Shown: positions 8,431-35,312 of the stretch, piece by piece | Numbering within the stretch: position 1 is the first letter of the stretch | How the letters are laid out: the number at the start of each line of letters is the position of its first letter | Assembly: GCA_965198945.1 (NCBI GenBank) | Contig: CBDAQI010000001.1 | Location: 1 to 64,000 of the forward strand | Source: Thermodesulfobacteriota bacterium | GTDB lineage: Bacteria; Desulfobacterota_D; UBA1144; Nemesobacterales; Mycalebacteriaceae | Direction of reading: 5' to 3' | DNA: 64,000 nt | Program-made: the position numbers and the translations under genes | The notes under the pieces: model-generated | Told to the model about the DNA's origin: nothing | What the model saw: only the letters and a program-made list of their open reading frames with translations | Database searches by the model: none

Positions 8431-9629
8431 AAGGTTTCCGGGCAATACGTTATAACACCGAAAAAGCGGGTGATCTGTCCGAAATTGTCACACCGCCATA
8501 TGATGTGATTGATTCCGCAGGGCAGAAAGCCCTGTATGAAAAACACCCTTTGAATTTTATCAGACTGATTCTTTCAAAAGAACCGGGTGAAAAGCGTTAC
8601 CGGGATTCCGGAGACACATTTCAAAAATGGCTGGATGAAAAAATCCTTGAGAGAGATGAAAAACCGTCAATTTACCGCTATTTCCAGAATTTTGAGTTTG
8701 GCGGAAAACATTTCACAAGAAAGGGTTTTATAGCAAGGGTAAAGATAGAGGATTTTGAAAACGGAGTTGTTTTTCCGCATGAAAAAACCTTCAAAAAACA
8801 CAAAGATGACCGCCTCAGATTGACCGAAGCGTGCGGGGCGAACCTCAGTCAGGTTTTTTCAACTTATTCGGATCCCGAAGGGCTTGTTGAAAAAACAATG
8901 GAAGATTCCACCGACGAACCTTTTGCCCGCATAGATTTTGAAGGGGTGAGAAATACGATATGGAAACTGGACGATGAGGAAACACTGCTAAGAATTTCCG
9001 CCCTGATGGCGGACAAAAAACTTCTGATTGTGGACGGGCATCACCGTTATGAAACGGCCATAAACTACAGAAACATTTGCAGGCTGGACGGAAAAAATCG
9101 CGGCGAAGAACATGAATATGTGATGATGTTTCTCTGCGGAGCCGAAGGGGAGGGACTTCTGGTTGAGCCGACTCACAGGGGGATGAAAAATTTGTGCGGA
9201 ATTTCCGCGGAAAAAATCGCTTCGGAACTGAAAAAAGAGTTTCATTGCTCGGAAACAAACGCCGAGAAAACCGATGAGCTACGAAGGAATCAGGTGGTTT
9301 TTGTTTATGAAAAAGGCGAAAAAGCGCTGATTTTTTCCCCGAAAGATAAAGACGAAAATTACCGGACAATGGGCGTTTTTACTTTGCATAATATTGTCAT
9401 TGATAAAATAATCAATTGTAAAAACAAGGAAATTATTTTTACAAAATCTCGTGAAGAACTGGTGAATTTTGTAAAAAACGGAGAGTGTGAAGCGGGTTTT
9501 ATAATGCCAAAACCGCTGATAAAAGACGTTATGGACGCGGCGGAGAAAGGTGTCAGAATGCCTCAGAAAACCACTTATTTTTATCCGAAAATTCTTTCGG
9601 GCATTGTCATAAACCCCCTCTGGAACTAA
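8418..9629 (+). CDS. DUF1015 family protein
   Basis: PPYDVI, FPHEKT, IVDGHHRYETA, PTHR, MPQKTTYFYPK. Confidence 0.85.
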   Translation: MAVVKGFRAIRYNTEKAGDLSEIVTPPYDVIDSAGQKALYEKHPLNFIRLILSKEPGEKRYRDSGDTFQKWLDEKILERDEKPSIYRYFQNFEFGGKHFTRKGFIARVKIEDFENGVVFPHEKTFKKHKDDRLRLTEACGANLSQVFSTYSDPEGLVEKTMEDSTDEPFARIDFEGVRNTIWKLDDEETLLRISALMADKKLLIVDGHHRYETAINYRNICRLDGKNRGEEHEYVMMFLCGAEGEGLLVEPTHRGMKNLCGISAEKIASELKKEFHCSETNAEKTDELRRNQVVFVYEKGEKALIFSPKDKDENYRTMGVFTLHNIVIDKIINCKNKEIIFTKSREELVNFVKNGECEAGFIMPKPLIKDVMDAAEKGVRMPQKTTYFYPKILSGIVINPLWN

Positions 9630-23268: not shown

Positions 23269-24394
23269 ATAGCAATCGGAAAAACACTTCCCCAACCGGA
23301 GAGATATGGCGCATTTATACCAGAAAGCGCATGTGATATTGAGTTTCAGTTTACACCTGAAACTGTAAAAAAAGCGCATGATACTGCTCTTGCAGTTGGC
23401 AAATTGGATGGAATCAGTCGGTTGCTGCCCGACATAGATTTTTTCCTTTTGATGTATATCCGCAAGGACGCCACCTCTTCAAGCAATATTGAGGGAACCA
23501 AAGCAACGCTGATTGAAAGCATTGAGCAGGAAGCAAAGGTATCAAGTGAACTCCCCCGATGATGTTTCGGACATCACTTAGTATATAAAAGCGATGAACA
23601 AGGGTTTTGAAAACCTGGAGCAGATTCCAGTCAGCAATCGTTTCATACGGCTTCTACACAAGGAACTTATGGAGGGCGGAAGGGAGTCTCACTATTCGGA
23701 CCCCGGAAACTTCCGCACCTCGCAGAACTGGATAGGAGGCAAATCTCTGCGGGAGGCAAGTTTTGTGCCGCCGCCACCGTCCGAAGTGCTGAGAGCAATG
23801 GGAGATCTGGAGAAATTCATACACAGGCGGGACAACATTCTGCCAATAATCAAGGCGGGAATTATCCACTCTCACTTTGAGACGATACATCCCTTTCTTG
23901 ACGGAAACGGCAGAACGGGAAGGTTGCTGATAACCTTTTTCCTGAACAAGGAGGGTTTGCTGGAAAAACCCATTTTGTTTCTTTCCTCATTTTTTATAGA
24001 ACACCGCCAATATTATTACGACTGTTTAATATCGTATCATAATGGCGATTATACAAAGTGGATTGATTTCTTTTTGAACGGCGTTACCGAGACCGCAAAT
24101 AAGTCAATAAAAACCGCAAACAAAATCGTGGGAATACGCGAGCGGGATATGAAAAAGATTTCCGGCCTGTCAAAAAGAGCATCCCAAACGGCTTTGAAAA
24201 TATATCCAAATCTTTTTGCATTGCCGATTGTCAATACTACAAAAATAATGGAGTGGGGCGGTCTGACCCGCGCCGGAGCACAGAGTGTTGTGAACCGCTT
24301 CATTAAAATGGACATCCTAAAATCCAGAGACCCGGATAAAACCTACGGACGGTCTTATGTGTATGAGGAGTATTTGAGGGTTTTTGCGAATTGA
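23269..24394 (+). pseudogene. Fic family protein (N-terminal domain, Fic core, C-terminal wHTH) pseudogene
   Basis: N-terminal part (GAFIP...VGKLDG...LPD..F...SSSNIEGT) upstream of the track ORF; an extra C in the C-run near 23555 and an in-frame TAG near 23580 separate it from the core with the intact motif HPFLDGNGRTGR. No ATG at the expected start (ATA). Confidence 0.85.
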
Positions 24395-24522
24395 AATACA
24401 TTTATTGTGGGAAAGAAGAAAATGAAAGTAATTGAAGAAAATATATTGACTTGCAGAAGTTGCGGCTTAACCGACTGGCAAAGGCGTTTTATGGTAAAAT
24501 CATTTTTCAACACGGGGAATGT

Positions 24523-25265
24523 ATGGAAATGAATAAAGCATTAAGTCTTTTTCCAAACAGTTACAGGAGCAAAATAGAAATATCTCAAGGCAACTGTTTC
24601 TCTCTGATTCAAAAGATGGAAGACAACTGTGTTGACTTGATAGCAACAGACCCTCCTTATGAAATAAATTTTGAGGATAACTATTGGGACAAACCAAACA
24701 CTCTGAACTGGGACTATTTGGCAAAAGAATTTAAAAGAGTTTTAAAACCCAATGGGGCTTTAATAATTTTTCAGGGTTGGTCTCAAGTCTGTGAAACCAA
24801 AGCAGTGTTGGACAAACATTTTCTTTTAAAAACTGGATTATTTATGACAGAATTAAGGGGAGAGGGGCAAAAACAAACGTAGTCTCAACCCGGGAAGACA
24901 TCCTTTGGTATGTGGCAGATGAAAAAGACTACACTTTTCACAAAATAGACTCCGCCATTAAGAAAAAAACGGGCGGAATGGGAAGAAAAAACGGCAGCAT
25001 TTACAGAGCACTTTCAAACGTTTGGACTGACGTTCCTCCTTTAGTTCCGTGGGGAGAAGAAAAAGTTCCACACCCGACACAAAAACCCATTTTTATTATG
25101 AAACGAATAATAGAAATATTTTCCAACGAAAACGACCTTGTTTTAGACCCCTTCATAGGCAGTGGAACAACCGCTCTTGCATGCAAAGAAACAAACAGAA
25201 ACTGTGTGGGTTTTGAATTAGACGAAAACTATTACCGACTTTGCCAGAAAAGATTCAATGATTGA
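24523..25265 (+). pseudogene. Beta-class DNA methyltransferase (DPPY, probably m6A), frameshifted
   Basis: TDPPY in ORF 24451-24882; HPTQKP and DPFIGSGTT in ORF 24912-25265. Joined by a -1 shift at TTTTAAAAAC (24824-24833), giving LLKNWIIYDRIKGRG. Confidence 0.88.
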
Positions 25266-25436
25266 CAAGTTTAGAATAGGCATGACAAAATTACGAAAGA
25301 AATGTAGCGGCAGGGGGAATGAAAAACAAATCCGCCGTTGGATAACGCCAAAGGCCTCTGGATTCAAATAAAAGCCGACTTGAAAGAGTTAAAACGTAGA
25401 TCCAAGGATTGAGAGTTATAAAAACACGGATAAGTG

Positions 25437-25466
25437 TTGCATTGAAAGTTACTATACGGATATAAT
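25437..25466 (+). promoter_or_regulatory. Sigma-70-type promoter for the second methyltransferase and the endonuclease
   Basis: TTGCAT-18 nt-TATAAT. Confidence 0.5.
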
Positions 25467-25524
25467 ACAGAGTTGTTCAAGTCTTCTTAAGGAATTACCA
25501 TTCTGATTCGCAGAGTCAGGAAGA

Positions 25525-26663
25525 ATGTTCAAAGAAATAACACTTCCTGTAGAGTCACTCTCAAACGCAGATAAAAACCTCGTCCAGCAGTTCAATCAGT
25601 ACTTCAAAACTGATGACGTAAAGATTGTTCCTAACGGAAAATCCATTGAAGTCCAATTAAGGCAGGTTGACTTCTCTTTGATGGAGAAAGTTGTAGCCGA
25701 CTTGACAGAATCAGCAAAAGACAACAACCCGCTTACCATAACATTGGATGCCATAAGAAACATTAAAAGTTACAGTTTGAAGGGGAAAAAAAGGATTTAT
25801 GTCGGCTATAACAAAGAAAGAAAAGTAAAAAACCGTGCCGAGAAGGAAAAACAAAGAGGTAAATATTTCTACGCAAAAGGGCATTCTTTCAAGAAAACAA
25901 ACAACAAAGTGCCCAAGGAGTTTGTTGATAAAATTGTCTGCGGAGACAGTGAAAAAATTTTATCAGAAATTCCGGACAACTGCGTTGATATGGTATTGAC
26001 TTCACCACCTTACAATTTTGGACTTAACTACAACAACAATAAAAATGACGAACACGACTGGAGAGAATATTTTGAAAAACTTTTTAAAGTTTTTGACCAG
26101 TGCGTAAGGGTTCTAAAATATGGCGGAAGAATAATAGTTAATGTTCAACCGCTCTTTTCCGACTATATTCCAAGCCATCACATAATCAGTAAATACTTCA
26201 TGGATAAAAAACTGATATGGAAGGGGGAAGTCATGTGGGAAAAGAATAACTACAACTGTAAATATACCGCCTGGGGAAGCTGGAAAAGTCCAAGCAATCC
26301 CTACCTGAAATACACATGGGAGTTTATAGAGATATTTTGCAAAGGAGATATGAAAAAGTCGGGAAACTCAAAAAATATAGATATTAGCGCTGACGAATTC
26401 AAAAAATGGGTCGTAGGCAAATGGTCTGTCGCACCCGAACGTAAAATGAAGCAATATGGACATCCCGCCATGTTTCCCGAAGAAATAGCGAACCGCGCAA
26501 TAAAACTGTTCAGTTTTAAAGGTGATTTAATACTTGATCCGTTCAATGGCGCGGGAACTACCACAACAGTTGCAAAAAAACTAGTCGTTCCTATCTGGGC
26601 GTAGATATTTCAAAAGATTATTGTAAAACTGCAGAAAAAAGAGCAAGAGAGATTCTTTTATGA
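25525..26663 (+). pseudogene. Beta-class DNA methyltransferase (SPPY, probably m4C) with N-terminal extension, frameshifted near the 3' end
   Basis: TSPPY, HPAMFP, DPFNGAGTT. A -1 shift at or just after the A7 run (26574-80) restores SRSYLGVDISKDYCKTAEKR, ending at TGA 26663, which overlaps the next ATG (ATGA). Confidence 0.88.
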
Positions 26664-27379
26664 GTAAAGTGGGCTTCTCTCCTGAAGTTGAAAAAATCTT
26701 GGATGAAATCATAGAGGAATATGACCGCATTTTTCAAAATGTTCAGGGCAAAGCTCTGCAAGACTCAGAAAACAGGGCTTATGGTGGCGTAATCAGGTCT
26801 ACAGTAGGCGGTTTCGTAGAATGGATGACAAAACGCTTGGTTGTAGCTACATGGCTCACACTTGGCCAAAATCAAACTTCACTTAACTTCAAGAGCGGAA
26901 AATATAAACTCCCAATACTTCAACAATATGTTGACAATATAGAAATTCCAGAGGTTAAAAAACAAATCCAAGACAACATCGGCGACTACACCTACGGAAT
27001 AGGACAAGATGTCCATGTTTATGAAGAAGACGATTTTATTCTTTCAATTGAGTGCAAAGCGTATGCAGAAAACGCAATGCTAAAAAGAATCATTGTAGAT
27101 TGCTGGTTTCTTCAAAAATTATTTCCAACTTTGAAATTCGCTCTTATCCAACTGGAAAGCCAATTAACGGGAGATTATCACGAGTTAAATGAAATAACTT
27201 TTGGAAGCAAATCATCTCATACAATAATGTCTTATTTCGATGTTGATTTAAAGATAATAACACTGCTCAAGGGAGCGCGAAAAGTGAAAGAGCCAATACA
27301 CAAATCAAGATTTTATAAAACCTTATAAAAGGATAGTTTGAAAAATGCAGTCAGGCAATTAACAGAATTAATTGAGTAG
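26660..27379 (+). pseudogene. PD-(D/E)xK restriction endonuclease, probably C-terminally truncated
   Basis: Coupled to the methyltransferase; QDVHV...SIECKAY catalytic pattern. TAA at 27326-28 is followed in frame by a helix-like KDSLKNAVRQLTELIE up to TAG 27379. Confidence 0.65.
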
Positions 27380-27415
27380 ATTATTAATGTAAAACAATTT
27401 CTAACCGCTGATTGC

Positions 27416-31083: not shown

Positions 31084-31293
31084 TTATGACCAGACGAGCG
31101 AGAGGTCTCGTTGCGAAGACACGCAATCTTTCAGATACAGATTGATAAGACTTTGGTAGGGGATGCCCTTTTCTTCCGCAAGTTTCTTAAAATAGGCGAC
31201 TGTATCCTCATCCAGACGGATTGTAATTTGTTTCTTTAGCCGTTTGGCGTAATGGTTCTTTCTGGACTTTGAGAAATCGTAGTTTTTACGCAT
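31084..31293 (-). CDS. BrnA-type (CopG/RHH) antitoxin
   Basis: MRKNYDFSK...KKQITIRLD..TVAYFK..GIPYQSLINLYL; overlaps the toxin 3' end. Confidence 0.88.
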   Translation of the reverse strand: MRKNYDFSKSRKNHYAKRLKKQITIRLDEDTVAYFKKLAEEKGIPYQSLINLYLKDCVSSQRDLSLVWS

Positions 31294-31582
31294 TGATATA
31301 CTCCTCATACTGCTTTTTCTCCCGTGAGTTCGCCTTGCGGGCTGAAATAATGCGGATGGTGTTTCCGTTACTCTCGCAGTGACAAACCACGAGCAGACGC
31401 AATCTGTCACTCACTCCTATCATAACAAAACTCTCCTCTCCTTTTTCAGAGTGGTCGGGGTCTCTGATGATTCGCGCAAACTCGTCATTAAAAACCGAGC
31501 GGGTTTTTTCAAAAGAAACACGGTGTTTTTTCCTATTTGACACATTTTTCTTCGCATCCCACTCAAAGCTAATGCCTTGCAT
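31286..31582 (-). CDS. BrnT family ribonuclease toxin
   Basis: FEWDAKKNVSNRKKHRVSFE...DPDHS...LLVVCH...IRIISARKA. Confidence 0.9.
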   Translation of the reverse strand: MQGISFEWDAKKNVSNRKKHRVSFEKTRSVFNDEFARIIRDPDHSEKGEESFVMIGVSDRLRLLVVCHCESNGNTIRIISARKANSREKKQYEEYINA

Positions 31583-31588
31583 TGTTAT

Positions 31589-31617
31589 TTTGTAATTACA
31601 ATGTAAAGATTTGTCAA
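31589..31617 (-). promoter_or_regulatory. brnTA promoter with overlapping palindromic operator
   Basis: TTGACA-17 nt-TACAAA, 6 nt before the ATG; perfect palindrome TTGTAATTACAA at 31590-31601 over the -10. Confidence 0.7.
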
Positions 31618-31682
31618 GAGCAATGCAAAGGCTTTATGAACGGAAGGTTTAAGCGGAGAGACGAGTTGACCGGCGCAAGCGG

Positions 31683-32411
31683 TCAGGGATTATTGGTTTG
31701 CATCAGTCGGGGCTTTTGCTCCCGAAACCAGTTGTAAAAGCGTTCCGCATCCGAAAACAGCGGCGGATTTGCGCTCCGTTGAAGATAACCATTTTTGACA
31801 CGAAGTCCGCCCCATTTCTCCAAAAGCGGTTTTGTGACGCGGTAGGAGTGTTTTCTGAATTCGCCGATTGGTATGTATTTGGCGAGGCGGCCGGACTTTT
31901 CCCGCTTACCCCTTACAACAATGTCTGTCGGCTCCGGCGGAGAGTTGCGTGTGTGGGCGTTTTCATCCCATCTTGACTGCGGAATATTATCCGCACGAAC
32001 AATTTCTTTCACAGTCAGCAAACCGATGAGTGCGTAGACGAGTTTGTCGTCCGTTACGGATTTAAGTCCCGCAAAGAAAACTACCATATCGTTTTCTTCA
32101 AAAGTCTGAAGATATTTGCCTCTTTTTTCCGTGTCGCCGTAGGTAAGGTTTTCAAAATCGGGATCAAGGTGCATACACTCGTCGGCCAGATTTCCGGGAA
32201 GGAAAACTTCGCAACCGTTGCGCTCTGAAAAACCCGCGAGCGCGGGAACTATCGTATCAGCGTAGCATTTTTCCATTCCGGCAACATTGGCGACCTTTGT
32301 CTGCTTTATAGGCACATAGACGAAGTCGCCCGTCTCAGGATTGCACGGAGCGTTCCAGTTGCCCGAACTTGCGGTTTGGTCAATTCCGACACGGATCAGT
32401 ATTGCTTTCAT
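31683..32411 (-). CDS. Nucleotide modification-associated domain 3 (Nmad3)-like protein
   Basis: ILIRVGID...G...AP...GDFVYVPI...HLDPDFENLTYGD...VVFFAGL...ENAH, recognised from memory of the Nmad3 family. Confidence 0.7.
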   Translation of the reverse strand: MKAILIRVGIDQTASSGNWNAPCNPETGDFVYVPIKQTKVANVAGMEKCYADTIVPALAGFSERNGCEVFLPGNLADECMHLDPDFENLTYGDTEKRGKYLQTFEENDMVVFFAGLKSVTDDKLVYALIGLLTVKEIVRADNIPQSRWDENAHTRNSPPEPTDIVVRGKREKSGRLAKYIPIGEFRKHSYRVTKPLLEKWGGLRVKNGYLQRSANPPLFSDAERFYNWFREQKPRLMQTNNP

Positions 32412-33046
32412 TCCGGCTGACACTGCATTACGGCATTGTCTTCCGCTTCGTTACACTTTTTGCTCTTTTCCAAATGAATTGGGTTGCCGTGCCTGCCGCA
32501 GCCGTATTCTTTCAATATGCACTCTATGTATTTTTTCAGTTTTTGATAATTCTCCGCCTTATTCTGATGTGAGCGTGTCAATTTTTCGTAAATATCCCCT
32601 ATTTTCTCTATTTGAGTTTTTTTATTGCTATCGCCAAAATACGCGAAGCAATTACTGACAAGACAAAATGCCCTGTTGTATTCTTCTGGTTCACCCAGAT
32701 CGGTTTCAAGTTTTTCTGCGGAATGATACTGAGCGTTATTTCTGAATTTATATTTTTTACCTGTCCATTCATAAATACAGTCAGGGCGATTCCAATACTC
32801 GCTTCCCGATGAATAGTAATCCTTTCCACTAATAACTTTCTCAACCCGCATAACATAAATCAAGCGGTCTTTTAATTCTGCTACGGACTTGCCGCCCACT
32901 CCAATAATCCAATTACCCTTTTCTGCTGTTGTGCGTATTTTGGGTTTGCAAATGCACAGCGAAATCAACCCATCTTCAACACAAGGCGCACCGCCGTTAT
33001 CGCAAGTCAATTTATAAATAAAAATTTTCGATTCTATCGTGTCCAT
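32408..33046 (-). CDS. Nucleotide modification-associated domain 2 (Nmad2)-like protein
   Basis: YKLTCDNGGAPC...SLCICKPKIR..AEKGNWIIG...LIYVMRV...RPDCIY...FAYFG, matching the Nmad2 pattern DxGxAP...LxxCKPxIR...GDW. Confidence 0.75.
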   Translation of the reverse strand: MDTIESKIFIYKLTCDNGGAPCVEDGLISLCICKPKIRTTAEKGNWIIGVGGKSVAELKDRLIYVMRVEKVISGKDYYSSGSEYWNRPDCIYEWTGKKYKFRNNAQYHSAEKLETDLGEPEEYNRAFCLVSNCFAYFGDSNKKTQIEKIGDIYEKLTRSHQNKAENYQKLKKYIECILKEYGCGRHGNPIHLEKSKKCNEAEDNAVMQCQPE

Positions 33047-33639
33047 TGTTCCCACAACTCCTCAACATTCTCTCTCAATTCTTCCAAGCCGCCCGAATTA
33101 TCAATCACAAAATCATAGTCAGGATTGCGTCCTTCCTGCGCTTTGAGACGTCTTTTCGCTTCCGCTCTGTCAAAATCGTCCCGCTTTGTCATTCTTTCAA
33201 TCTTTTTTTCATCACTTGCATCCACAAGAACAAGGTGGTCTATTACCTCGCCCAGCGCGCCTCCGCGAGAAAGAAGCGCAGCCTCTATCACAACCGCTTT
33301 CGCACCCTCCACAGAAGCCTTTTCCGCACGGGCGATTATCTCATCCCTTATTTCCGAGTGCGTTATGGCTTCAAGCGCCTTTCTTTTTTTCGCGTCCGAA
33401 AAAACCTCCACGCCCAGTTTTTCCCTGTCTATTTTCCCGTCCGCGCCAATAACTCCGGAGCCGAACTCCCGCAATATTCTTTCAAACGCGGGCTTTCCCG
33501 GTTTTGTAATAAAACGCGAAACCTCATCGGCGTCTATAACCTCGGCGCCAAGTTCTGAAAACATCCCCGCAACAGTGGATTTGCCTGAACACACATTTCC
33601 GCAGAGCCCCAAAATCACAGTCCGACCACCCGCACTCAC
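33034..33639 (-). CDS. coaE: Dephospho-CoA kinase
   Basis: GLCGNVCSGKSTV, IDAD, IDREKLG..VF, LEAITH, IDNSG. Confidence 0.93.
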   Translation of the reverse strand: MSAGGRTVILGLCGNVCSGKSTVAGMFSELGAEVIDADEVSRFITKPGKPAFERILREFGSGVIGADGKIDREKLGVEVFSDAKKRKALEAITHSEIRDEIIARAEKASVEGAKAVVIEAALLSRGGALGEVIDHLVLVDASDEKKIERMTKRDDFDRAEAKRRLKAQEGRNPDYDFVIDNSGGLEELRENVEELWEQWTR

Positions 33640-33642
33640 AGT

Positions 33643-35073
33643 TCAGTCTCCCGACTTTATAATGCGCACCGCGTTTTCAATACGGCAAACCGTCTTCTCC
33701 CTTCCGAGAGCGGCTATAACCTCATAAATACCAGGGCTTTCGGTCTTTCCCGTAAGCGCGACGCGCAGCGGCTGCGCCATCTGCTTCATTTTCAATCCGG
33801 TTTCTTCGGTAATAGCCGAAAAAGCGGGCTTGAGTCCCTCAGGGTCAAACCGGGTATCTTCGGCGGAAAGAGCGGGCAAAACCACCTCAAGAGCAGAAAG
33901 CGTCTCGCCGTTGATGAACTTTTCTTTCGCCTCTTTGTCAAATGCCACAACTTCACGGAACAAAAAAGCGCTTTTTTCCGCCATTTCAACAATCGTCTCA
34001 GCCCTTTGCCTGAGAAGTTCAAACGCTTTTTCCGCATCCCGCCCGGAAACATCAAATCCCATTTCGGAAAGAGCTTCCCGAAGCGGCGTAACCACTTCAC
34101 TTTTACACTCACGAATATGAATACCGCTTACCCAGCGCATCTTTTTCTCGTCAAAATTTGACGGCGAAATTCCGAGCCCCTTTGTGTCAAATTTTTCAAT
34201 CAGCTCTTCCATGGTGAAAATTTCCTCATCACCGTGCGACCACCCAAGCCGCGCAATATAATTTGCAAGAGCGGAAGGAAGAATCCCTTTCTTGCGGAAC
34301 GCCTCAACCGAAACCGCCCCGTGCCTTTTGCTGAGCTTTGAGCCGTCCGGAGCGAGAATTACCGGAAGGTGAACGAAAGAGGGAATGGAAAATCCGAGCG
34401 CTTTGAGGAGCAATATCTGCTTCGGTGTGTTCACGAGATGCTCATCTCCTCTTATTACATGGGTTATGCCCGAAAGCGCGTCATCTATGGCGGAGGCAAA
34501 ATTGTAAGTCGGCATACCGTCTGAGCGGAGAATGACAAAATCTTCTATGTCCTCCTCTGAAAACACCATTTCGCCGCGAAGCAGGTCGTTAAAAACAATC
34601 CCGTTTGAGAAATCCCCGGACTGGCCGCCGAAACCGTGAGGCACTGCAAATCTCACCGCAAAAGGGGCGCCGTCTCTTTTCCCGCGCTCTGCCCATTCTC
34701 TTCTGTAGCGGAAGCGGAAGTGGCCGCCGCCGTCTCGCACGGCTTCTCTCTCGCGCTCAATGTCTTCGGGAGTCATATAACACCTGAACGCTTTGCCGGA
34801 CGAAAGAAGTTTCTCCACATACTCTGAGTAAAGACCAAGGCGGGCGGATTGGCGAATGGGCTCTGCGTCCCAGTCAATCCCAAGCCATTTCAGGGAGTTT
34901 TTTATCTCTGAAAGAGACTCGTCGGTTGACCGCTCCGTGTCGGTGTCTTCTATGCGCAGAACAAATTCGCCTTTGTTGTGACGGGCGAAAAGCCAGTTAA
35001 AAAGGGCGGTTCTGGCTCCACCTATGTGCAGAGAGCCGGTCGGACTGGGGGCAAATCTGGTTTTTACGCTCAT
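33643..35073 (-). CDS. gltX: Glutamate--tRNA ligase
   Basis: RFAPSPTG.LHIGG, RIEDTD, KLSKR. Confidence 0.96.
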   Translation of the reverse strand: MSVKTRFAPSPTGSLHIGGARTALFNWLFARHNKGEFVLRIEDTDTERSTDESLSEIKNSLKWLGIDWDAEPIRQSARLGLYSEYVEKLLSSGKAFRCYMTPEDIEREREAVRDGGGHFRFRYRREWAERGKRDGAPFAVRFAVPHGFGGQSGDFSNGIVFNDLLRGEMVFSEEDIEDFVILRSDGMPTYNFASAIDDALSGITHVIRGDEHLVNTPKQILLLKALGFSIPSFVHLPVILAPDGSKLSKRHGAVSVEAFRKKGILPSALANYIARLGWSHGDEEIFTMEELIEKFDTKGLGISPSNFDEKKMRWVSGIHIRECKSEVVTPLREALSEMGFDVSGRDAEKAFELLRQRAETIVEMAEKSAFLFREVVAFDKEAKEKFINGETLSALEVVLPALSAEDTRFDPEGLKPAFSAITEETGLKMKQMAQPLRVALTGKTESPGIYEVIAALGREKTVCRIENAVRIIKSGD

Positions 35074-35312
35074 CAGGAACCATCAAGACCGCCTTGCCGG
35101 GCAAGTTCTTCCAATTCATTAAAACCGCCGATAAGTTCGCCGTCTTTGAGAATAATCGGAACGGTTCTCCATTTGTATTGTTCAGAGACTCTGATCCTCT
35201 CCTCGGGGCTTTGTGTAAGATCTATCTCCTCGTATTTGAGACCTTTGGAATTAAACAATTTTTTTGATGCGATGCAGTAGGGACATGTTCCGGTTGTGTA
35301 GATTGTAAACAT
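35073..35312 (-). CDS. grxC: Glutaredoxin
   Basis: CPYC, TVP, IGG. Confidence 0.88.
   Translation of the reverse strand: MFTIYTTGTCPYCIASKKLFNSKGLKYEEIDLTQSPEERIRVSEQYKWRTVPIILKDGELIGGFNELEELARQGGLDGS

Follow-up and report, generated by a model that had tools for sequence, protein, structure and literature searches.

A stand-alone Nmad2-Nmad3 gene pair with an exchangeable partner beside a housekeeping operon of a Thermodesulfobacteriota bacterium

We describe a pair of overlapping genes, Nmad2 and Nmad3, that occupies positions 31683 to 33046 of a 64,000-nucleotide stretch of DNA from a Thermodesulfobacteriota bacterium (the whole stretch is referred to below as the window, and the genome that holds it, of 1.39 Mb in 14 contigs and 95% complete, as G000). 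A comparison of 80 Nmad3 loci shows that Nmad3 is the constant, slowly evolving component of such pairs and that the neighbouring gene is exchangeable, being drawn from four families (Nmad2-A, Nmad2-B, X and Y) and sometimes fused to Nmad3. An earlier reading made from the letters of the window, hereafter the sequence-only reading, had described an intact pair attached to the grx-gltX-coaE operon and had proposed a minimal defence or modified-base system. What it observed is confirmed and its interpretation is partly supported: the feature belongs to a known, uncharacterised kind of cassette, and our best reading is that the two proteins would act as an obligate two-protein reader or enzyme for a modified base or nucleotide. 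New here are the replacement of the partner at the same site within one genus, a four-way tally of partners, a census of fusions and a test of the gene neighbourhood that did not reach significance.

A constant Nmad3 and an exchangeable partner

Both family assignments hold far above the Pfam cut-offs. Nmad2 matches PF18753 with 105.5 bits (cut-off 26.1; E 3.4e-30; model positions 2-198 of 200), and Nmad3 matches PF18754 with 75.7 bits (cut-off 27; E 5.8e-21; model positions 1-188 of 247), a partial coverage that recurs in every relative scanned. The Nmad2 of the window represents a divergent subfamily, Nmad2-B, which is homologous to the canonical Nmad2-A (hhalign probability 99.8% over 177 columns), with a pairwise identity of only 27% between the window protein and Nmad2-A. 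For Nmad3 we found 1848 homologous clusters of similar length; among the matches listed, identities lie between 46 and 76%, and the closest named homologues are annotated as Candidatus Dadabacteria or Mycalebacterium. A search of ESM Atlas returned unnamed clusters only, below 0.9, and in PHROGs Nmad3 weakly matches phrog_34025, a family of unknown function. The Nmad families of Pfam reportedly trace back to computational work by Aravind and colleagues. Full-text literature searches found no experimental characterisation of Nmad3 or of the Nmad2-Nmad3 pair, and for Nmad2 the DS-4 system discussed below alone bears on the matter.

Each gene is present once in G000, as a complete open reading frame (ORF), and the coordinates agree with those of the sequence-only reading. 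On the minus strand the order is grx, gltX, coaE, Nmad2, Nmad3, brnT and brnA. The ATG of Nmad2 at 33046 produces a 13-nt overlap with the end of coaE (ATGGACACGATAG); an alternative in-frame GTG at 33055 is possible, but it lies merely 2 nt past GAGGAG. The stop codon of Nmad2 (32410-32408) and the ATG of Nmad3 (32411) form an ATGA overlap, and Nmad3 ends with a stop codon at 31685-31683. Nmad2 is, as had been remarked, AT-richer, with a GC content of 0.397 vs 0.495 for Nmad3 and 0.502 for coaE. The gene overlaps fit the proposed expression from the housekeeping operon, and the cassette is probably translationally coupled to grx-gltX-coaE.

The 80 loci come from named genomes of Acidobacteriota, Planctomycetota, Verrucomicrobiota, Proteobacteria, Myxococcota, Poribacteria and others, and their neighbouring genes were classified with hidden Markov models (HMMs) built from our own alignments. 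A recognised partner adjoins Nmad3 in 67 loci, on the same strand in 61 and as an X gene convergent on the opposite strand in 6. Family Y, an unannotated family of about 205-245 amino acids (aa), serves as partner in 32 loci, six of them as N3-Y fusions; Nmad2-B alone does so in 20, family X (about 150-220 aa) in 11 and Nmad2-A alone in three, while one locus has both kinds of Nmad2, in the form of an N2A-N3 fusion next to Nmad2-B. The other 13 loci, two of which lie at a contig end, have no recognised partner. Families X and Y match nothing in Pfam. Both orders of Nmad3 and partner occur, and the order of the window, Nmad2-B followed by Nmad3, recurs in five proteobacterial loci (L033-L037).

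Fusions point in the same direction as linkage. Among 104 longer Nmad3 proteins, 92 are fusions with a partner (85 N3-Y, 4 N2A-N3, 2 N2B-N3 and 1 N3-N2B) and 12 carry an unrecognised extra part; the precomputed Pfam list shows no nuclease, TIR or similar effector domain in any of the 104. The description of the genes as a two-gene module is borne out. The sequence-only reading had also found the usual partner enzymes missing, and locally this is correct, there being no adjacent nucleotide-modifying gene. It had named, as an outcome that would refute its proposal, a pair left over from a larger operon whose other genes were lost; the comparison speaks against this. The 80 loci contain no linked nucleotide-modifying enzyme and no conserved third gene, and the stand-alone pair is the normal state of this Nmad3 clade and no stripped remnant.

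Along a tree built from 82 Nmad3 sequences, 12 changes of partner type are counted, compared with 31.9 when the labels are shuffled (0 of 200 shuffles gave a value as low), a result that shows clustering only, as related sequences are not independent. The partner has been switched at least 12 times on this tree. Between loci that share a partner type, Nmad3 is the better conserved of the two proteins in 98% of 190 Nmad2-B pairs (mean identity 0.52, vs 0.41 for Nmad2-B) and in 97% of 276 Y pairs.

The exchange can be followed at a single chromosomal site. We compared G000 with five other genomes of its genus (G001-G005), all of which contain coaE; G014, G018 and G022, mentioned below, belong to the same order. 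Nmad genes are present in two of the six, G000 and G004, in each case in the interval bounded by coaE and the carboxyltransferase gene pccB. Reading on from coaE, G004 has Nmad2 (235 aa, 207.7 bits), then a Cys-rich X gene of 158 aa without annotation, then Nmad3 and pccB, and it lacks brnTA. In G003, pccB follows coaE directly with no cargo, the gap of G005 is filled by a ParE-like toxin gene and two unknown ORFs, and those of G002 and G001 contain single unknown ORFs. Since the cargo differs between genomes, the coaE-pccB gap (window 31084-33034; L017-L021) is a variable cargo hotspot within the genus.

Between G000 and G004, Nmad3 is 72% identical, within the range of 69-89% spanned by the flanking genes (grx 73%, gltX 69%, coaE 75%, BCCP 80%, biotin carboxylase 84% and pccB 89%). 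The two Nmad2 proteins share only 27% identity, both genes are AT-richer than their surroundings, and the window Nmad2 is 53% identical to the second Nmad2 gene of G014. On the tree the two Nmad3 sequences are sisters (SH-aLRT 98), and their partners are nevertheless different. Given its flank-like identity and its host-like GC content, Nmad3 looks vertically inherited between the two species, and we read the low Nmad2 identity as a probable replacement of the partner in place, in either direction.

Could the partners, for all their turnover, be members of one superfamily? At the sequence level this is not supported. In hhalign comparisons Y reached a probability below 1% against Nmad2, X or Nmad3, and Nmad3 reached 8-21% against Nmad2; Nmad2-B against X gave 78%, over 48 N-terminal columns only.

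In the six loci with a convergent X gene (6 of the 11 X-type loci: L046, L052, L055, L060, L072 and L079; about 8719-9260 in locus coordinates) the layout is conserved, and the 3' end of X overlaps that of Nmad3 by 20 nt in five loci and by 14 nt in L046. Lying on the opposite strand, X cannot be co-transcribed with Nmad3, yet the arrangement is maintained.

Predicted folds and known systems

The model of Nmad3, built from an 84-sequence alignment, has a predicted local distance difference test score (pLDDT) of 95.9 and a predicted template modelling score (pTM) of 0.93; that of Nmad2-B, from 62 sequences, has a pLDDT of 89.6 and a pTM of 0.86, with a disordered tail at residues 201-212. With Foldseek, neither model matched a PDB entry at E<=1e-3; the best rows were nonetheless the McrB N-terminal domain, EVE proteins, THYN1, ASCH and YTH domains. 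When each model was aligned exhaustively with about 48,000 representative chains, the first 22 rows all belonged to the PUA-like superfamily, and the ASCH enzyme YqfB was among the weak structural matches. The predicted pseudo-barrel superposes on solved PUA-like members over most of the domain. At the sequence level, the Nmad2 and Nmad3 profiles had 0 hits among PDB sequences. Both proteins are therefore predicted, from confident models, to adopt PUA-like (EVE/ASCH/YTH-type) folds. Elsewhere the PUA-like barrel holds a flipped-out modified base, and the proposal that the pair senses or processes modified DNA stands to the extent that the predicted fold, that of modified-base readers, fits it.

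The alignment of 84 Nmad3 sequences contains 41 invariant columns, which include D11, W19, H81-L-D-P-D85, Y91-G-D93, N151-A-H153, R155, S173-G-R175 and R186, as well as Y190-R191, W200 and R212-S213. Arg, His and Asp are prominent among these residues (HLDPD, YGD, NAHxR, SGR and RS), which would suit a site that takes up either a nucleic-acid base or a nucleotide with its phosphate. In Nmad2-B the invariant residues are Y11, G18, A20-P21, L30, C33, R38, G49, Y77, R87, D89, Y92 and D116, with C22 and K34-P35 near-invariant.

At the C-terminus of the Nmad2-B, Y and X partners lies a low-complexity tail, polar or basic in character and with a cysteine in it (32408-32443 in the window Nmad2). A Cys lies within the last 15 residues of 61 of 62 Nmad2-B, 19 of 20 Y and 12 of 12 X proteins, compared with 1 of 6 Nmad2-A and 4 of 84 Nmad3 proteins. 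The tailed families are not detectably related, apart from the weak N-terminal similarity of Nmad2-B and X over 48 columns. In G004 and at one locus of G014 the tail-less Nmad2-A serves as partner, and there a further gene with a Cys tail (X or Nmad2-B) accompanies it.

The window pair shares its families (PF18754 with PF18753), its protein sizes (about 210 and 245 aa), its tight coupling and the lack of any further conserved gene with other cassettes of Nmad3 and partner. Unlike these, it is joined to a housekeeping operon by the 13-nt overlap, and its Nmad2 is replaced relative to the sister species.

Nmad2 is also found in DS-4 of E. coli, a validated anti-phage system of five genes, encoding a thymidylate-synthase-like protein, a dNMP kinase, a 5-hmdU DNA kinase, a TIR/NDT-like protein and, as the last gene, Nmad2 (PF18753) (DeWeirdt, Mahoney, Laub, Science 2026; PMC13092281). 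DS-4 has no Nmad3. In the window coaE, and not a TIR gene, lies directly 5' of Nmad2, and no pyrimidine-modification enzyme is encoded next to the pair. Genome-wide, HMUDK_hel and MazG_C had 0 hits in G000, a negative to be read with the control genomes being silent too and the genome being 95% complete. A layout that matches DS-4 is present in G018 and G022, where Nmad2 (237-238 bits) stands behind a ThsB-type TIR gene and ahead of MazG/MazG_C and UDG-like genes; compared with these, the window Nmad2, with 105 bits to the same Pfam model, is of a divergent subfamily. The sequence-only reading had mentioned an association of the Nmad families with nucleotide-modifying enzymes. The association with pyrimidine modification is a property of the TIR-paired Nmad2 subfamily, that of DS-4, and not of the Nmad3-linked one.

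G000 has a row of three ThsB-type TIR genes on its contig 4 (125454-127447; L106-L108; 26, 86 and 99.6 bits). This Thoeris-like locus is unlinked to the Nmad pair.

In several defence systems with PUA-like readers (EVE-HNH VcaM4I, the McrB N-terminal domain, PD-T4-3 and PUA-Cal-HAD) the reader is joined to an effector (HNH, AAA+ GTPase, GIY-YIG and calcineurin/HAD), whereas the window encodes two predicted PUA-like proteins alone, and an effector of this kind is likewise missing from all 104 longer Nmad3 proteins. PUA-like domains are modified-base sensors coupled to varied effectors, and that of PUA-Cal-HAD binds m6-dAMP and thereby triggers immunity (bioRxiv 10.64898/2026.01.15.699771). BapA is an ASCH-like enzyme of a two-gene defence operon that strips glucose from glucosyl-5hmC in phage DNA (PMC13160076); its partner is a UDG-superfamily glycosylase, whereas Nmad3 is accompanied by what is predicted to be a second PUA-like protein. 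As regards the catalytic ASCH-type proteins (BapA, the N4-acetylcytidine amidohydrolase YqfB and the ribonuclease ZmASCH), Nmad2 and Nmad3 have no sequence similarity to any solved chain.

Possible functions of the pair

We tentatively favour the explanation that the two genes form a self-contained, horizontally mobile cassette for a heteromeric modified-base recogniser with an accessory, defence-type function; the defence-type function, taken by itself, is plausible without being probable. The cassette would have been inserted in the variable coaE-pccB gap. Nmad2 and Nmad3 would form an obligate heteromer, in which Nmad3 may be the ligand-binding or catalytic core and the Nmad2-type partner may supply a second base-reading site for specificity or regulation. 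Together they would recognise, and probably hydrolyse or trim, a modified base in foreign hypermodified DNA or in nucleotides released in infection, and so serve an accessory defence-type function that dispenses with a classical nuclease or NADase effector. In a bolder form of this proposal, which we consider unlikely, Nmad3 and its swappable partner would constitute an effector-less class of anti-phage or anti-foreign-DNA systems, a heteromeric enzyme that flips, removes or cleaves a hypermodified base, with the partner setting which modification is attacked. That Nmad3 is kept while its partner is replaced at one chromosomal site argues for the partner as the determinant of specificity.

An accessory, conflict-type role is favoured by the patchy distribution, the turnover of partners and the variable site. 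Within the phylum, Nmad3 is confined to 3 of 120 genomes, from 2 of 32 genera. The Nmad2 of DS-4, the m6-dAMP sensor of PUA-Cal-HAD and the deglucosylase BapA serve as precedents. Neutral to such a role, or against it, is that a tblastn search of 50,697 phage records found nothing of the family and one of 72,556 plasmids gave a single hit of 30% identity.

The closest Nmad3 relatives outside the phylum (60-64% identity) are from Poribacteria (L026, L029 and L031), in which the neighbours are ankyrin-repeat/CotH, PhyH and beta-lactamase-family genes; L029 has an rve integrase gene, and in L031 the X partner is lost. These relatives hint at exchange among bacteria of a shared habitat.

A number of results weigh against a defence function of a heteromer. 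The one pointer to heteromer formation is the set of fusions, and 13 of the 80 loci have Nmad3 with no recognised partner. PADLOC, which the sequence-only reading had named as a check together with defence-island enrichment, lends no help: PADLOC-DB v2.0.0 (2023 library) at E<=0.01 yielded 0 families for Nmad2, Nmad3, BrnT and BrnA, and PF18754 is absent from ten supplementary tables of the DefensePredictor paper (PMC13092281). For enrichment, the first 42 of the 80 loci were examined, with genes within two genes of the cassette counted as near and those >=5 kb away as far. At E<=1e-8, PADLOC families were hit by 16 of 145 near and 6 of 88 far genes (Fisher p 0.36) or, counted by locus, in 14 of 42 near and 4 of 33 far regions (Fisher p 0.055); the gene counts fall to 11 of 145 and 5 of 88 when ankyrin, ABC-F and partial hits are left aside. 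A count of Pfam defence families from a hand-made list was likewise not significant (about 25 of 145 near, or 23 without ambiguous families, vs 9 of 88 far). In favour of a conflict-type role, some neighbours are type I restriction subunits, a type VI retron, an McrBC fragment or PD-T4-3/PDC-S11-like, PIN, Fic, MazE, Schlafen-AlbA and EVE genes; many loci sit among ordinary metabolic genes. Nmad3 is, moreover, unusually conserved across phyla for an immune protein (46-76% identity among the matches listed), a conservation that would suit an enzyme with a fixed small-molecule substrate.

Such an enzyme could act in nucleotide house-cleaning or salvage, where it would hydrolyse or demodify modified nucleosides or nucleotides set free when RNA or DNA is turned over. 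This would be an accessory metabolic trait and not immunity, by analogy with the ASCH enzymes YqfB and, reportedly, EOLA1, which act on N4-acetylcytidine. The predicted ASCH-type fold in both proteins, the weak structural match to YqfB, the strongly conserved Arg/His/Asp-rich residues of Nmad3, the coupling to a housekeeping operon in a genome of 1.39 Mb, the metabolic genes around many loci and the absence from phages and near-absence from plasmids would all suit salvage; we nevertheless hold it to be somewhat unlikely, because a distribution as patchy as 3 in 120 genomes and a partner replaced by unrelated families in at least 12 switches are seen more among conflict systems than among salvage enzymes, and about a third of the loci adjoin restriction-modification (RM), toxin-antitoxin (TA) or retron genes. 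A reader or eraser that acts on the host's own DNA, tRNA or rRNA, where it would repair or remove lesions or epigenetic or epitranscriptomic marks, would draw on the same predicted fold, which is common to YTH, EVE and ASCH readers and RNA-modification enzymes; co-transcription with gltX would link it to tRNA biology, and SRAP and EVE genes neighbour the cassette in single loci. The position after gltX-coaE is kept, however, in two species only, with different contexts in all other loci, and a pair missing from 117 of the phylum's 120 genomes does not serve a general housekeeping mark, which makes this role very doubtful.

Linkage, fusions and mobility would also be explained by a selfish addiction module made of a harmful protein and a second one that counteracts it. 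The two genes are small, overlap and are mobile, TA genes often adjoin them (brnTA here and MazE, PIN, FitA-like, ParE-like or Fic genes elsewhere), and 6 of the 11 X-type loci have a convergent partner that overlaps Nmad3. Covalent fusions as common as 92 of 104 longer forms are unusual for toxin-antitoxin pairs, however, Pfam and PADLOC place neither protein in a TA family, and the 13 loci with Nmad3 but no recognised partner fit poorly, so that we regard a toxin and antidote as highly improbable. Least credible of all is a decayed remnant, of no present function, of a larger nucleotide-modification or DS-4-like operon. It could appeal to the TIR, MazG and UDG-like genes beside Nmad2 in G018 and G022, to the thymidylate-synthase-like and kinase genes that accompany Nmad2 in DS-4, and to the third gene, X, between Nmad2 and Nmad3 in G004; it is largely refuted by two intact frames with a precise overlap, by an Nmad3 as conserved between the two species as the housekeeping flanks, by the recurrence of the Nmad2-B and Nmad3 layout, with nothing else conserved, in 20 other loci, and by the assignment of the TIR-linked Nmad2 to a different subfamily.

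The interest of the modified-base recogniser that we favour lies in the size of the family, about 1,850 protein clusters for which we found no experiment in the literature. If the pair is an enzyme or sensor for modified bases, it would offer a compact tool, made of two proteins, with which modifications of DNA or RNA could be read or erased and, if the defence reading is true, possibly an added immune strategy. The locus amounts to a natural experiment, in which one genus, at one site, has kept Nmad3 constant and replaced its partner. For the annotation of G000 the result is modest: an accessory cassette that is ordinary for its family.

Neighbouring genes and further observations

Table 1. 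Features of the window at and near the Nmad2-Nmad3 cassette
Feature	Coordinates	Strand	Basis and remarks
Glutaredoxin-like gene (grx), first in host operon	35073..35312	-	ORF; name from gene order and sequence-only reading
gltX (glutamyl-tRNA synthetase)	33643..35073	-	ORF; 69% identity to G004; G001 orthologue matches tRNA-synt_1c
coaE (dephospho-CoA kinase), last housekeeping gene of operon	33034..33639	-	Pfam CoaE, 141.6 bits; stop TAG
Nmad2, divergent B subfamily, 212 aa	32408..33046	-	Pfam PF18753; AT-richer, exchangeable partner
Nmad3, 242 aa	31683..32411	-	Pfam PF18754; conserved cassette core, predicted decorated PUA-like fold
Spacer, 100 nt, directly 5' of brnT ATG	31583..31682	-	Direct sequence reading
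brnT toxin gene	31286..31582	-	PF04365, 86.1 bits; neighbouring TA module, no conserved part of cassette
brnA antitoxin gene, 69 aa, ATG at 31293	31084..31293	-	PF14384, 39.8 bits on longer ORF 31410-31084
222-aa ORF	26660-27328		No Pfam match
N6_N4 methylase, 359 aa	25525-26604		Intact-looking
117-aa ORF	24912-25265		
N6_N4 methylase fragment, 143 aa	24451-24882		
Fic gene	23594-24394		

The TA module reported to follow the pair is present: the genes directly 3' of Nmad3 match both Pfam families of the type II system BrnT/BrnA. They overlap by 8 nt, with the brnA start picked from the sequence. The link to the cassette is not conserved; unlike the cassette genes, brnTA forms a separate module with its own upstream spacer, and the sister-species cassette in G004 does without it. 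The spacer contains two promoter-like hexamers, TTGACA (31617-31612) and, after 17 nt, TACAAA (31594-31589), which we infer to be a candidate promoter; the second hexamer lacks the final T and was missed by the consensus scan. That scan performed at chance level overall, with 5 promoter-like matches vs 4.1 expected and 6 terminator-like matches vs 6.4 expected.

In G001, gltX and coaE form one open frame of 679 aa (L021:5750-7789) with tRNA-synt_1c, Anticodon_2 and CoaE domains, which could be a real fusion or the product of a lost stop codon.

A region of low GC content (23594-27328 in the window; 0.31-0.41 around 26000-27400) holds the RM island that the sequence-only reading took to be decaying. 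This holds for one N6_N4 methylase, which is cut to 143 aa, and not for the 359-aa methylase and the 222-aa ORF, both of which are open; the latter may be a candidate endonuclease.

Among the loci examined, the clearest defence-island context is that of L045, from a metagenome-assembled genome of Spartobacteria. The gene right after Nmad3-X (L045:9286-10134) matches PDC-S11 and the GIY-YIG part of PD-T4-3, a protein that the title of PDB entry 9u75 describes as a 5hmC-specific restriction endonuclease; an SRAP gene lies upstream, and SIR2 and WYL genes are found 6-7 kb off.

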